The notes below the pieces were generated by a model. It was given only the letters and a program-made list of their open reading frames with translations, did no database searches and was not told where the DNA came from. A stretch of 64,000 bases of DNA from Escherichia coli (GTDB lineage Bacteria; Pseudomonadota; Gammaproteobacteria; Enterobacterales; Enterobacteriaceae): the NCBI RefSeq assembly GCF_044324785.1, contig NZ_CP172127.1, one strand, 5' to 3'. The stretch's first letter is position 1. Every line of letters starts with the position of its first letter. A program made the position numbers and the translations under genes. Of this stretch, positions 43,279 to 51,376 are shown piece by piece.

Positions 43279-43378
43279 GGCTGAAATCAATCAATCTATT
43301 TTTGTGATAGAAATATATTTATCTACCACTTTTTTCGATCAATAATGTGCATAATTTAGTCATTAAGAGGAAATTGCT

Positions 43379-43585
43379 GTGAATTGTATTAACGACCTGA
43401 ACACAGGCGATGTCAGAGGTGGTTCCGTTCATCTGGATGCACAGACCGTGATGCGCCTTAAGCAGTACAGAATCGACCATGTGAACAATCACCCTGATCA
43501 GCCATTACCAGGCGTGGCGCAGATTGTCAGACATGCCGTAAACGCCTGGCTTAATCAGAATGGTTTTGCATCGGGGGGTGAGTAA
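43379..43585 (+). CDS. Small hypothetical protein heading the cargo operon (possible regulator)
   Basis: 68 codons starting at GTG 43379 after RBS AAGAGGA; sits between an AT-rich promoter-like region and the 843-aa gene. Confidence 0.3.
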   Translation: MNCINDLNTGDVRGGSVHLDAQTVMRLKQYRIDHVNNHPDQPLPGVAQIVRHAVNAWLNQNGFASGGE

Positions 43586-43681
43586 TGAATCGCTGGTACA
43601 GCATCAAAGCAGAGGGACGCCAATGTTATCTAACTCAGGTTTTATGAATTCTGACTCCCGATTCAAAATAGGAGGTTACTA

Positions 43682-46213
43682 ATGCCAGTCGTACCAACAG
43701 TATCCGGACGTCAGGTTGAGAGCCGTGGAGTTCAGTCAGCAGGCTTGCAGACGTTTTCTCAGCCAGGTATTGGTGATGCTTTTGTTCGGGCAGGGGCAGA
43801 GGCAATTGATGTTTTTGGTCAGGCAAAACAGCGTGCCAATATTGCCTTGATTCAGGAGGCATCCCTTAAACTCAGTCAGACAGGCAGTGATCTGCTGAAT
43901 AATCCTGAAACAGGATTGCTTAACCTGAAAGGGAAAAATGCTATTGGAAAAGGCCATGAGTATACACAGCAGTTTGATGCTCAGATCGAACAACTGGCTA
44001 TGTCGCTGCCGGATGAACAGGCTCGTAATGCTTTCATGCAGCAGGCGCAGCAGCAGCGTATTCAGTTCGCTACGCAGGCCGGGAGGTACGAGATAGGGCA
44101 AATAAATGCCTACGAAGAAGGCCAGTTTCAGGCTACGCTGCTGAACAATGGTAAAAATGCCGCAGCATTGTATGGCGACAACGCCGCATACGTATTGGCT
44201 AATAAGCAAACTTTCCAGCAAATTGAGGATTACGGTATTGCGCATGGCTGGAGCGACGAGCAAATCCAGGCCAAGAAAATCGAGTTTAAAGAAGCAACAG
44301 CAAAAGCAACTGCTCAAAATGCTATTGGAGCAAACTATCTTCAGGTAAGACAGCAAAATGGCGAGTTAAGCGATACTGCTGCTGGATCTCGCCGTGCTGT
44401 AGCAGATAGTGGCTCTTCCGATCGTACCCGCGGTATACGCAACAATAACCCCGGCAATCTTGAATACAGCAAAACTAATCCGTGGGTTGGGCAGACTGGT
44501 GATGATGGTCGCTTTGCCAAATTCGAAACCCCTGAACACGGTATTCGCGCGCTTGGTCGCAATTTGCTGTCGTATCAGCGTCAGGGTTATGACACCATCA
44601 GCGAAATAATTAATCGCTGGGCACCGGCCAGTGATGATAATAAAACTGATGCTTATATACGGGCAGTATGTGCTCAGCTCGGTGTAACTCCTGACCAGCC
44701 GCTTGACGCATCAAATCCTGACACACTGAAATCTCTGTGCAAAGCAATTATTCATCATGAGCAAGGCAGTCAGCCGTACAGTGATCAGCAATTGGCCGCT
44801 GGCGTTAGTGCCGCACTGGGGCTTTCTCAGCTACCGACAAAAAATAAACGTTATACCGGTGTAGCCTGGTTCGATGCTTTAAGTGAATCAGATCAGGCCA
44901 GCGTGTTGCGACAGACGGATGCATTAGCCAGACAGCAGCAGGCTGAATATAGAACGATGCTCGAAAGCCGGGTTCGCGATGCAACGGCTGCGTATATGCG
45001 TGGCGTTGAATTTCCTAACCCGCCTGGTGAGGGTGAGTTCATTGCTGCTTATGGTGTCAGAGAAGGAAACCTGCGATATACCGAGTTCAGAAATTTGCAG
45101 ATCGCCGGACAGTATATAGGCTCTTTCCGCAACATGCCGACAAGCAGCATTACCGCATATGTTGAGCAATTACGCCCGGATACTGGTGAGACAGGGGAGG
45201 GGTATGCGTCTCGTGCGGAGTTATTCGACCGGGTATCGGCGGCAGCCACGAAGGTAATAACCCAGAGGCAGAATAATCCGTTTAGTGCAGCGGTGGAAAT
45301 CGGAGCCTATAAGCCGATCACCAGCAACAACCCTGACGATATCACTGCCGAGGTGGCTAACCGTTTCTCGTCGCAGGAAAGCTTACGCGCGTTGGGAATT
45401 AATGCCCCACTCCTCAACAGTGAAGAGGCGGCTGCGCTGGCACAGCAGGTGCGCGGCACTCAGAACGTTGACCAGACAATTAAACTGTTGCAGAGCATGG
45501 GGGAGAAGCTGCCTGCGCCAGCAATACGGCAGGTGGCATCTGTAATTGCTCCGAACAGTGCGGCAACAGCCTATTCTGCGCTGCTGCTGGGCACGCCGGA
45601 TAACCAGTACGACAACACCAGGCCGACGATCCCATATAGTCAGTTCATCGGGTATAAGCCGACGATGAACAAGTACGACGTTGCAAAGGTTATTCTTTCC
45701 GGTGACCAACTACTGAATCCGACGAAGGCTATGAAGAATGCGGGCATAACTCCGGTACAGTTGCCGAGCGAAGATAAAATGAAGCGCGCTTTCGACGAAC
45801 AGGTTGGTAATGCATTTGCCCGTAACCCAGAGACGCGCCAGATCAGTTATAGCCTTTTCAAAGCCGCTTACGCAGGAATCGCTTATCAGTCTGGTAATGC
45901 GTCTATGACGAGCACAGATGCGGTTAACTCCGATGTGGCGGAGAAAGCTGCGCAGTACGCAACAGGCGGTGTATACAAGAGATTTAATGGTGGTGATGTT
46001 GTAATGCCTTTCGGCATGGATGAATCCACTTTCAAAGATCGCTATACCACATCAGCGAAACAAGCACTGAAAGATGCCGGACTTAACGTAAATGCAGTGT
46101 CAAACTTCACACCAGTTAATATCGGCAATAACCGGTATCGGCTGGTAAATGGTAGCGGACGCTGGGCAACAGATCCCAGAACCAATGAAGCTATTGTCGT
46201 GAGGGTTGAATAA
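43682..46213 (+). CDS. Large hypothetical protein (843 aa), cargo operon gene 1
   Basis: Strong RBS (AGGAGG) then ATG; Q/A-rich N-terminal third; central segment RNNNPGNLEYSKTNPWVGQTGDDGRFAKFETPEHGIRALGRNLLSYQRQGYDTISEIINRWAP looks like a conserved domain I cannot assign; stop overlaps the next start (TAATG). Confidence 0.6.
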   Translation: MPVVPTVSGRQVESRGVQSAGLQTFSQPGIGDAFVRAGAEAIDVFGQAKQRANIALIQEASLKLSQTGSDLLNNPETGLLNLKGKNAIGKGHEYTQQFDAQIEQLAMSLPDEQARNAFMQQAQQQRIQFATQAGRYEIGQINAYEEGQFQATLLNNGKNAAALYGDNAAYVLANKQTFQQIEDYGIAHGWSDEQIQAKKIEFKEATAKATAQNAIGANYLQVRQQNGELSDTAAGSRRAVADSGSSDRTRGIRNNNPGNLEYSKTNPWVGQTGDDGRFAKFETPEHGIRALGRNLLSYQRQGYDTISEIINRWAPASDDNKTDAYIRAVCAQLGVTPDQPLDASNPDTLKSLCKAIIHHEQGSQPYSDQQLAAGVSAALGLSQLPTKNKRYTGVAWFDALSESDQASVLRQTDALARQQQAEYRTMLESRVRDATAAYMRGVEFPNPPGEGEFIAAYGVREGNLRYTEFRNLQIAGQYIGSFRNMPTSSITAYVEQLRPDTGETGEGYASRAELFDRVSAAATKVITQRQNNPFSAAVEIGAYKPITSNNPDDITAEVANRFSSQESLRALGINAPLLNSEEAAALAQQVRGTQNVDQTIKLLQSMGEKLPAPAIRQVASVIAPNSAATAYSALLLGTPDNQYDNTRPTIPYSQFIGYKPTMNKYDVAKVILSGDQLLNPTKAMKNAGITPVQLPSEDKMKRAFDEQVGNAFARNPETRQISYSLFKAAYAGIAYQSGNASMTSTDAVNSDVAEKAAQYATGGVYKRFNGGDVVMPFGMDESTFKDRYTTSAKQALKDAGLNVNAVSNFTPVNIGNNRYRLVNGSGRWATDPRTNEAIVVRVE

Positions 46214-51029: not shown

Positions 51030-51343
51030 TGACGAGAGATAAAATTGAATATATTGCTTCTCTTAAATATGAAGCTGAGAAATGGAGAAGGATTGGCGGG
51101 TGGGGAACATTAATATCACTCTCTGCTTTACTTATAGACTCCTGGTTCAGACATATTGATGCAGCATCATTACTTTTTGAATCAGCAGTACTTGGTGGAT
51201 TCATTTGCTGTTGGGGTGGTAATTATGATCGGGCGTCCAAACATAAGAGAGAACTTGACGCGATATGTTTTGCTTTATTCGGTAAGGATTACGAAAGTTC
51301 TGACCTTGATATAATTGAATTCAACAAAACGGAACTATCGTGA
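51029..51343 (+). CDS. Small protein with one hydrophobic segment (104 aa), cargo operon gene 4
   Basis: TGATG coupling to gene 3; predicted membrane-spanning stretch (LISLSALLIDSWF...VLGGFICCWGG); followed by a terminator. Confidence 0.45.
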   Translation: MTRDKIEYIASLKYEAEKWRRIGGWGTLISLSALLIDSWFRHIDAASLLFESAVLGGFICCWGGNYDRASKHKRELDAICFALFGKDYESSDLDIIEFNKTELS

Positions 51344-51351
51344 CATGTCAC

Positions 51352-51376
51352 AGGCCGCTTTCGCGGCCTTGTTTTT
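51352..51376 (+). terminator. Rho-independent terminator of the cargo operon
   Basis: Stem aggccgc / gcggcct with loop tttc, followed by TGTTTTT; 9 nt after the stop of the 104-aa gene. Confidence 0.6.

Follow-up and report, generated by a model that had tools for sequence, protein, structure and literature searches.

A block of four genes encoding proteins of 843, 686, 918 and 104 amino acids (aa), headed by a 68-codon open reading frame (ORF68), lies in a 64,000-nucleotide stretch of the Escherichia coli contig NZ_CP172127.1, called the window here. The block is part of an integrative element at a tRNA-Gly gene. A sequence-only reading of the window had described the block as an insulated operon of large unknown proteins carried as cargo of a glyU element, and much of its account of the layout was confirmed. 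The ORF coordinates hold (Table 1), as do the 1-nt stop/start overlaps at the gene 1/2, 2/3 and 3/4 junctions (TAATG, TAATG and TGATG), by which the genes are translationally coupled, and a Shine-Dalgarno-like sequence precedes every start. The flanking terminators were found as hairpins with T-runs. The GC content of genes 1-3 is core-like, as had been stated, at 0.46-0.50 against 0.51 in the core genome to the left and 0.38 in the type III secretion system (T3SS) island to the right, and att sites enclose the element at tRNA-Gly (CCC) in which the block is found.

The proteins themselves belong to known phage families. Searches of PHROGs gave end-to-end matches for gene 1 (phrog_992, E=5e-291) and gene 2 (phrog_1145, E=2e-136), and a full-length match of gene 3 to phrog_684, a virion structural protein family (E=1e-294). 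The block is collinear with positions 12140-19319 of Salmonella phage epsilon15 (E15), which hold gp15, gp16 and gp17, at 78% nucleotide (nt) identity; the gene order gp15-gp16-gp17 is retained, and the homology to these Uetakevirus ejection proteins is full-length. At the protein level gene 1 is 80% identical to gp15, gene 2 is 83% (aa 1-277) and 74% (aa 480-686) identical to gp16, and gene 3 is 89% identical to gp17. Residues 249-403 of gene 1 match peptidoglycan-hydrolase domains (PDB 9vvp_L, E=4e-39; endolysin 7q47, E=2e-16). The epsilon15 literature assigns gp17 to the internal core above the portal and all three proteins to the injection apparatus, and it describes a trans-envelope tube observed during infection. 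By homology, genes 1-3 are internal-core and DNA-ejection genes of an epsilon15/phiV10-type podophage.

Gene 4 has homologues at 80-84% aa identity right behind gp17 in five Uetakevirus loci. Its hydropathy profile is that of a small hydrophobic protein, and it is swapped for other ORFs in the copy of the element in strain ExPEC XM, so that by position and profile it is a variable accessory gene of the Uetakevirus late operon, predicted to encode a small membrane protein. Given the orthology of genes 1-3 to gp15-gp17 and the place of gene 4 behind gp17 in Uetakeviruses, all four can be taken as phage late-operon genes. The 1-nt overlap style of the junctions is shared with epsilon15, as is their location as the last genes of the late operon, ahead of its terminator. 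Unlike in epsilon15, no portal, capsid, tail or gp13/gp14 genes accompany the four, gene 1 has an N-terminal half of phiV10/HEMP4 type, and gene 2 contains an orphan insert of about 200 aa.

These matches change the standing of the block. The earlier description of large unknown proteins does not survive them, nor does the notion that nothing in the block resembles phage genes, whereas the suggestion of captured internal-virion proteins does, gene 4 included. Because full-length homology to phage structural proteins was found, the novelty of the block as an unknown system is gone. What is unusual is the context: the carrier is a satellite without other virion genes. The other suggestion, an anti-phage defence cargo, received no direct support. 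None of the five module proteins matched a defence family in PADLOC-DB at E<=0.01, nor did any of them match NCBIfam or Pfam, so the block is not recognised as a catalogued defence system.

The orphan insert of gene 2 replaces the middle of the protein relative to E15 gp16. It gave no match in Pfam and no homologue in searches of 5.8 billion and 1.84 billion proteins, and none of the 54 phage loci surveyed has it, nor does the second satellite lineage described below. Its AlphaFold2 model has a confidence (pLDDT) of 45 and is unusable. The zincin signature that had been proposed for gene 2 is present as a single HExxH motif, HEALH at residue 355. The enzyme assignment was dropped: no profile, homologue or usable model stands behind the motif, and 4.5% of shuffles of this His/Glu-rich protein also contain an HExxH. 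Comparison with polyvalent (DarB-like) proteins gave a weak match of 59 aa (37% identity, E=2e-3) to giant proteins of Ralstonia phages.

The element that carries the block is bounded by perfect 19-bp att repeats lying 19,145 bp apart, and its integrase adjoins attL. Upstream of the module stand PerC, ORF138, ProQ, SSB and primase genes, instead of the portal through gp13 and gp14 genes of a phage late operon; the element also encodes a DUF4222 protein besides the PerC-family gene. No terminase, portal, capsid, tail or lysis gene was found among the ORFs of the element or in its annotation by the Prokaryotic Genome Annotation Pipeline (PGAP), so its virion genes are limited to the three internal-virion proteins, a kind of gene that classical definitions of phage-inducible chromosomal islands (PICIs) do not foresee. 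The P4-like proteins Sid, Psu, Delta and Epsilon were likewise absent, by name or family match, from PGAP, PHROGs and NCBIfam results; the Icd-like gene and the alpha-like primase are all that the element has in common with P4-like satellites. The putative replication origin near attR consists of three 21-bp direct repeats with a TTGCGGGTTAT core (52045-52104) and inverted copies at about 52176-52200, which flank an AT-rich stretch. A solitary iteron copy lies at 41472-41487, just behind the primase gene, and the arrangement looks like a two-site origin of the P4 ori/crr kind. Judged by its gene content, and by a size within the 8-20 kb or so of such att-flanked elements, the carrier is a PICI-type phage satellite with a backbone like that of the E. 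coli satellite EcCIMP1, and not a prophage.

Table 1. Features of the satellite, its ejection module and its ends (positions in the window).
Feature	Position	Strand	Details
tRNA-Gly (CCC), integration target	33488-33561	+	ARAGORN
attL core TTCCCTTCGCCCGCTCCAA	33544-33562	.	perfect 19-bp direct repeat, the 3' end of tRNA-Gly
Tyrosine integrase	33687-34940	+	phrog_1, E=7e-79; 66% aa to EcCIMP1 integrase
AlpA-position helix-turn-helix (HTH) regulator	36094-36291	+	78% aa to EcCIMP1 gene at alpA position
AntA/AntB and BRO-N antirepressor genes	36367-37741	+	PHROG anti-repressor families, PGAP names
Icd-like gene	38568-38771	+	PGAP name, phrog_6196
DUF927 primase/helicase (replication)	39323-41449	+	phrog_1139, E=4e-174; 62% aa to EcCIMP1 primase; ~90% nt to primase of the UMNF18 capsid-forming PICI
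Single-stranded DNA-binding protein (SSB) and ProQ/FinO-family genes	41660-42616	+	phrog_44; NCBIfam ProQ/FinO
Upstream terminator	43252-43283	+	hairpin 43252-43273, 9-bp stem and T-run; insulates module from replication genes
AT-rich leader and ORF68	43279-43585	+	predicted satellite-derived head of morphogenesis operon
ORF68	43379-43585	+	68 aa, GTG start
Left capture junction, gp14 3'-end remnant	43614-43681	+	100% identical to T7 gp14-family virion core protein genes of E. coli Uetakevirus prophages
Gene 1	43682-46213	+	843 aa, gp15 orthologue, phrog_992
Gene 2	46213-48273	+	686 aa, gp16 orthologue, phrog_1145
Orphan insert in gene 2	47044-47649	+	aa ~278-479, 38% GC, contains HEALH, satellite-specific
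Gene 3	48273-51029	+	918 aa from ATG, 925 aa from an upstream GTG; gp17 orthologue, phrog_684
Gene 4	51029-51343	+	104 aa, small hydrophobic protein
Right capture junction, helper-derived late-operon terminator	51339-51413	+	98.7% to HEMP4, 96.6% to annotated phiV10 terminator region
Downstream hairpin with T-run	51352-51369	+	
Iteron cluster, putative replication origin	52045-52200	.	near right end
attR core	52689-52707	.	TGTGTATAG arm repeats at 52609-52629

The head of the operon appears to come from the satellite. ORF68 matches phrog_4934 and gave no tblastn match in 50,697 phage records, and a copy that is 91% identical at the protein level immediately precedes the gene for a protease/major capsid protein (MCP) fusion in another PICI (L009). 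It had been considered as an equivalent of epsilon15 gp3, which has the same size and relative position, and this was rejected when blastp and blastn showed no similarity; it is a PICI gene instead. Since ORF68 heads a capsid operon elsewhere, and the related element of E. coli UMNF18 has a capsid module at this place, the ejection genes can be said, on comparative grounds, to occupy the morphogenesis slot of the satellite, behind a satellite-type leader.

EcCIMP1, the PICI of E. coli MP1 (19,963 bp), is the closest known relative. It excises, circularises and is transduced only with the podophage helper vB_EcoP_Kapi1, and alpA is its master regulator (PMC11773190). The two backbones are homologous and in the same order, with 66% aa identity between the integrases, 78% between the HTH proteins at the alpA position, 75% between the AntA proteins and 62% between the primases, and with DUF4222, Icd-like and PerC genes in common. 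EcCIMP1 also has an ejection-protein module right downstream of its primase, and it is about half the size of its helper (Kapi1, 39,436 bp). Its authors saw "no phage-like structural genes" and suggested that the module genes act in packaging (PMC11773190). Compared with Kapi1, the proximal DUF2824 protein of that module is 83% identical, the gp7-like protein 57%, the gp20-like protein 26% and the distal gp16-like protein, with its lytic transglycosylase domain, 24%. The present module has the same gradient, from a helper-matched proximal protein to distal proteins of a different type. The EcCIMP1 module differs in being of P22/Lederbergvirus type (DUF2824, gp7-, gp20- and gp16-like), with no sequence relation to the present one. 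EcCIMP1 moreover integrates at tRNA-Thr, and its mobilisation is experimental, whereas the present element is known from sequence.

The steps that known phage satellites act on are capsid size, the specificity of the terminase or the acquisition of tails. The capsid-forming PICI (cfPICI) of UMNF18 is about 90% identical at the nucleotide level from primase through SSB to ProQ, has the same order of int, HTH, Icd and DUF4222 genes, and has its virion genes, a complete capsid module, at the corresponding place behind the replication genes. In contrast to the present element, which has none of these, cfPICIs encode MCP, protease, portal, connector, HNH and the small and large terminases (TerS/TerL) and borrow only tails; the present element brings only those proteins that are carried within the head and breach the envelope of the recipient. 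P4 and classical PICIs follow the same general plan as this element, which combines integrase, alpha-like primase and Icd-like genes with antirepressor-type sensing and a late module directed at the virion of the helper. Compared with the hijack modules of P4 (Sid/Psu/Delta) and of classical PICIs (TerS, Ppi, Rpp, capsid-size redirection), the target here is the ejection apparatus and not capsid size or terminase specificity; no homologue of sid, psu, delta, terS or rpp was found in the element. The element thus lacks the defining features of cfPICIs, P4-like elements, complete prophages and catalogued defence systems. Its proteins are, by homology, ordinary members of a known phage family, and the element is, by the same kind of comparison, a PICI-type satellite closest to EcCIMP1. 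Ejection or injection proteins go unmentioned in a census paper on satellites, which leaves such "Type C" elements out of consideration, and no other satellite was described in the searchable literature as carrying its own ejection proteins. A satellite whose only virion genes encode ejection proteins therefore appears to be unrecognised in the satellite literature.

Both edges of the captured block can be located. On the left, a 67-nt stub of gp14 stands directly upstream of gene 1, and on the right the phage terminator follows gene 4. Within the block, windowed identities show that nt 1-1500 of gene 1 are 92-99% identical to coliphages of the HEMP4/phiV10 type (85-99% to E. coli Uetakeviruses overall), whereas the rest of gene 1 and genes 2 and 3 are of epsilon15 type and only 27-45% identical to the phiV10 type (27-31% between satellite and helper for gp16 and gp17). 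Gene 1 is in this sense chimeric, with a breakpoint near residue 500 of gp15. Among satellite copies, the synonymous divergence (dS) of gene 1 is 0.06-0.21 against 0-0.04 for neighbouring genes, a contrast that we read as probable continuing recombination with phages. Two patches of gene 1, 44580-44880 (nt ~900-1200) and 45770-46070 (nt ~2085-2385), are 71-88% identical between copies that are otherwise 97-100% identical, and these look like short recombination tracts from different phage donors. On the evidence as a whole we consider it likely, with a probability of roughly 0.65, that the block is a virion-hijack module of a PICI-type satellite, namely the distal end of a Uetakevirus late operon, induced by the helper, whose ejection proteins are built into helper particles.

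The block was searched for in complete E. coli genomes. The satellite type, at 96-99% identity, is present in 36 of 5,426 (~0.7%), and true epsilon15-type prophages, at ~78% identity, are present in 12 of the same 5,426. The satellite occupies two chromosomal sites, glyU and yicC/dinD, with different integrases and the same interior. The three large ORFs are intact in every copy examined, and omega (dN/dS) among satellite copies is 0.04-0.29. Between the satellite and the nearest phages dS exceeds 2 and is saturated, and omega for gene 3 is 0.02-0.03, equal to that of phage-phage pairs. Judged by these ratios, the module is under strong purifying selection. Among the 36 listed copies, that in NZ_CP135671.1 (strain TUM9803) is the sole disrupted one, with an IS4-like insertion sequence (IS), ISVsa5, inside the ejection block. 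In strain A3176 (NZ_CM163382.1), an IS200/TnpB element takes the place of the ProQ/ORF138 segment (positions 9220-10867 of the stretch L013) and the ejection module is intact. On its left the A3176 satellite is flanked by a type I-E cas5e gene (positions 1-780), and L013 has no annotated tRNA-Gly.

When IMG/VR was surveyed with gene 3, the matches lay in 54 phage contexts and six satellite contexts, and three of these six belong to a second satellite backbone lineage with a primase 61% identical at the protein level. In the gene 3 tree the two satellite lineages fall at different places among the phages, and the upstream junction of lineage 2 lacks the gp14 stub and holds a small, unrelated ORF. 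By their separate tree positions and different junctions, the two captures were independent. One lineage-2 contig of 19,241 nt is a circular permutation of the element: its attP is intact with the same TGTGTATAG arm repeats, its ends overlap by 45 nt, and its gene order wraps from the integrase back to the regulators. By these features, the contig is an excised or concatemeric form. A further lineage-2 contig, IMGVR_UViG_3300011848_000035 (23,299 nt), exceeds one unit, with the integrase recurring behind the accessory region, which suggests an assembly across a concatemer or a tandem array. The Klebsiella "phage" ST11-OXA245phi3.2 was considered as another satellite and turned out to be a true Uetakevirus prophage.

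These data bear on whether the block is inert, the leftover of a decayed Uetakevirus prophage linked by chance to an integrative element. The block is indeed phage-derived and keeps a truncated gp14 stub, the neighbouring PerC gene is marked as frameshifted by PGAP, and one copy is interrupted by an IS. A remnant of this kind is nevertheless very improbable: the three large ORFs are intact in each copy examined, with omega of 0.02-0.29; 36 genomes have kept the block, at two sites and with different integrases; a second lineage captured its own version and has an excised circular relative; and the backbone is of PICI type and has nothing in common with Uetakevirus early regions.

The same constraint counts against a resident exclusion or interference device, in which the ejection proteins or gene 4 would be made uninduced or early and would block or poison the DNA entry or assembly of incoming Uetakeviruses. 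Three large proteins are held at full length at the level seen in phages, which is more than a decoy should need; the terminator insulation, and the same leader and ORF68 as stand before the capsid genes of a related PICI, point to late, morphogenetic expression; and PADLOC and NCBIfam gave no defence match. Such a device would account for a small, hydrophobic gene 4 at a variable position, and gp16 and gp17 of a different type joined to a helper-matched gp15 N-terminus could be dominant-negative. Most EcCIMP1 genes are, in addition, detectably transcribed in lysogens (PMC11773190). On balance an exclusion device is unlikely.

If the block is a virion-hijack module, as we prefer to read it, a Uetakevirus helper is expected. 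Of the 36 satellite genomes, 16 have a second match to the block. Any match was found in 380 of 5,390 other genomes; the comparison group was the 307 that have phiV10-type gp16-gp17. Two of the 16 second matches were verified as complete prophages of phiV10/HEMP4 type, one in NZ_CM163382.1 by full annotation and one in NZ_CM185152.1 by a full-length match to HEMP4 gp16-gp17. In A3176, the match between prophage gp15 and satellite gene 1 is confined to the N-terminal 1.5 kb, at 85%; gene conversion in situ between the satellite and the co-resident prophage was not seen, this part being 85% and not ~100% identical.

Satellite units of 19,145, ~19,196 and 19,963 bp compare with podophage genomes of 39,104-39,891 bp and are about half the size of the helper. 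This would fit approximately dimeric concatemers in full-size heads, with no remodelling of the capsid. The annotation of the podophage terminase as Sf6/P1 PacB-like points to packaging by the headful.

Spare ejection genes might instead serve as insurance, by complementation, so that a defective Uetakevirus prophage could still mobilise the satellite with its specificity unchanged. The authors of EcCIMP1 use the same logic for a helper-type excisionase on that satellite, and prophage decay is common; one E15-like prophage that was examined has a frameshifted tail gene. But insurance would favour proteins identical to those of the helper, and the distal ones are only 27-45% identical to the co-resident prophage type. 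Both co-resident prophages that were checked carry their own gp15-17, and 7.7 kb of a 19 kb element is a large cost. We regard this explanation as quite improbable.

The preferred reading, an induced module for helper particles, can be put as a sequence of steps. A piece comprising the gp14 remnant, gp15, gp16, gp17, the gene for the small membrane protein and the terminator would have been captured at once and placed behind the leader and ORF68 of the satellite. During lytic growth of a Uetakevirus helper, the satellite would excise, replicate from its iteron origin and express the operon. The three ejection proteins would enter helper-made procapsids through the helper-matched N-terminal half of gp15, and satellite DNA would be packaged by the headful as an approximate dimer into full-size capsids. 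In the next cell, the satellite-encoded proteins would be ejected, cut peptidoglycan and form a trans-envelope conduit for satellite DNA. The likely benefit of distal proteins of a different type would be escape from the injection exclusion exerted by a prophage of helper type, or else a disadvantage to the helper, and this is the weakest step.

The idea that exclusion is bypassed comes from P22, whose prophage protein SieA prevents injection; the changes that allow escape lie in the C-termini of gp16 and gp20, and partial escape is also seen in hybrids with foreign ejection genes (PMC10461980). As in P22, distal ejection proteins may decide whether DNA passes a prophage-encoded block at the inner membrane. 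The likeness is a functional analogy only, and the link is drawn by inference, as no SieA-like gene was identified in Uetakeviruses here. Interference with helper progeny and simple edge recombination remain as alternatives to a bypass of exclusion.

Several observations weigh against a helper-induced hijack module, or leave it less secure. The association with prophages (odds ratio 13, p=4e-11) holds if all 16 second matches are prophages, of which two are verified, and is uncorrected for clonality or phylogeny. The satellite yielded no pac site, TerS or other determinant of packaging, and no helper-like sequence beyond the module and its terminator. Homologues of gp13 and gp14 are absent from the satellite, so that part of the core would still come from the helper. 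The mosaic of gene 1 could be mere recombination at the edge of shared homology, with no adaptive meaning. The sequence-only reading had called the head of the operon AT-rich and promoter-like; the leader at 43279-43378 is indeed AT-rich (27% GC), but no promoter in it passed a scan with the sigma-70 consensus. Finally, transduction of EcCIMP1 was very inefficient (PMC11773190).

A more specific proposal, "ejectosome piracy", is put forward tentatively, and we think it rather less likely to be right than wrong. Podophage satellites would keep a proximal part matched to the helper for loading and distal, envelope-spanning proteins of another type, and would thereby inject despite a block by a prophage of helper type. 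Helper progeny would perhaps be handicapped, and in this lineage the insert of gene 2 would be an effector injected along with the satellite DNA. If true, this would add a fourth way of hijacking a helper to the three of capsid-size redirection, terminase redirection and capsid formation. Two independent acquisitions of ejection genes (three with EcCIMP1), the constraint at phage level and the proximal-matched, distal-different pattern in both comparable pairs suggest that the DNA-entry step itself is a target of conflict between satellite and helper.

With a breakpoint near residue 500 of gp15, the module offers a concrete way to test how capsids recruit podophage ejection proteins, and it bears on superinfection exclusion at the level of injection. 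A run of genes that appear as "hypothetical proteins" in ~0.7% of complete E. coli genomes is thereby explained as well. Tools for finding satellites that forbid virion genes or require packaging genes will miss such elements.

Other candidates within the satellite were considered and set aside. ORF138 (42597-43013) was considered as a small terminase; its PHROG match is partial only, and Pfam and NCBIfam were empty. A 396-aa ORF at 37581-38771 is an extension artefact of the Icd-like gene and not a hidden large gene: a family match (Icd-like/repressor, phrog_6196) is confined to its last ~90 residues, and it encloses two minus-strand genes of 65 aa with full-length PHROG matches. The PerC-family gene just upstream of the module, at about 43025-43250 (12626-12851 in locus L002), is called frameshifted by PGAP in each satellite copy examined, namely SCU-105, ExPEC XM and 22-245. 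That diverged copies have this lesion in common suggests either a shift that is tolerated or programmed or an artefact of annotation.

Upstream of the AlpA-position HTH gene, 35881-36004 holds tandem 33-bp repeats (TTACCATCACCCTTAGGGTAGATTTCC...) and TACCCTGAGGGTGATTT repeats at a 22-bp spacing, and these probably serve the satellite switch as operators or as sites where its regulators bind. The ~1.3 kb from the module terminator to attR (51382-52688) has no convincing gene in the window, and PGAP calls a 139-aa minus-strand ORF there in SCU-105; the segment differs among satellite copies and may be a variable accessory hotspot. Outside the satellite, to the right of attR, 52897-64000 holds a glycoside hydrolase of family GH15, a GhoT/OrtT-family toxin gene and an AT-rich T3SS cluster of ETT2 type (eivF, sctC, sctV, sctN and others), as annotated in matching genomes.

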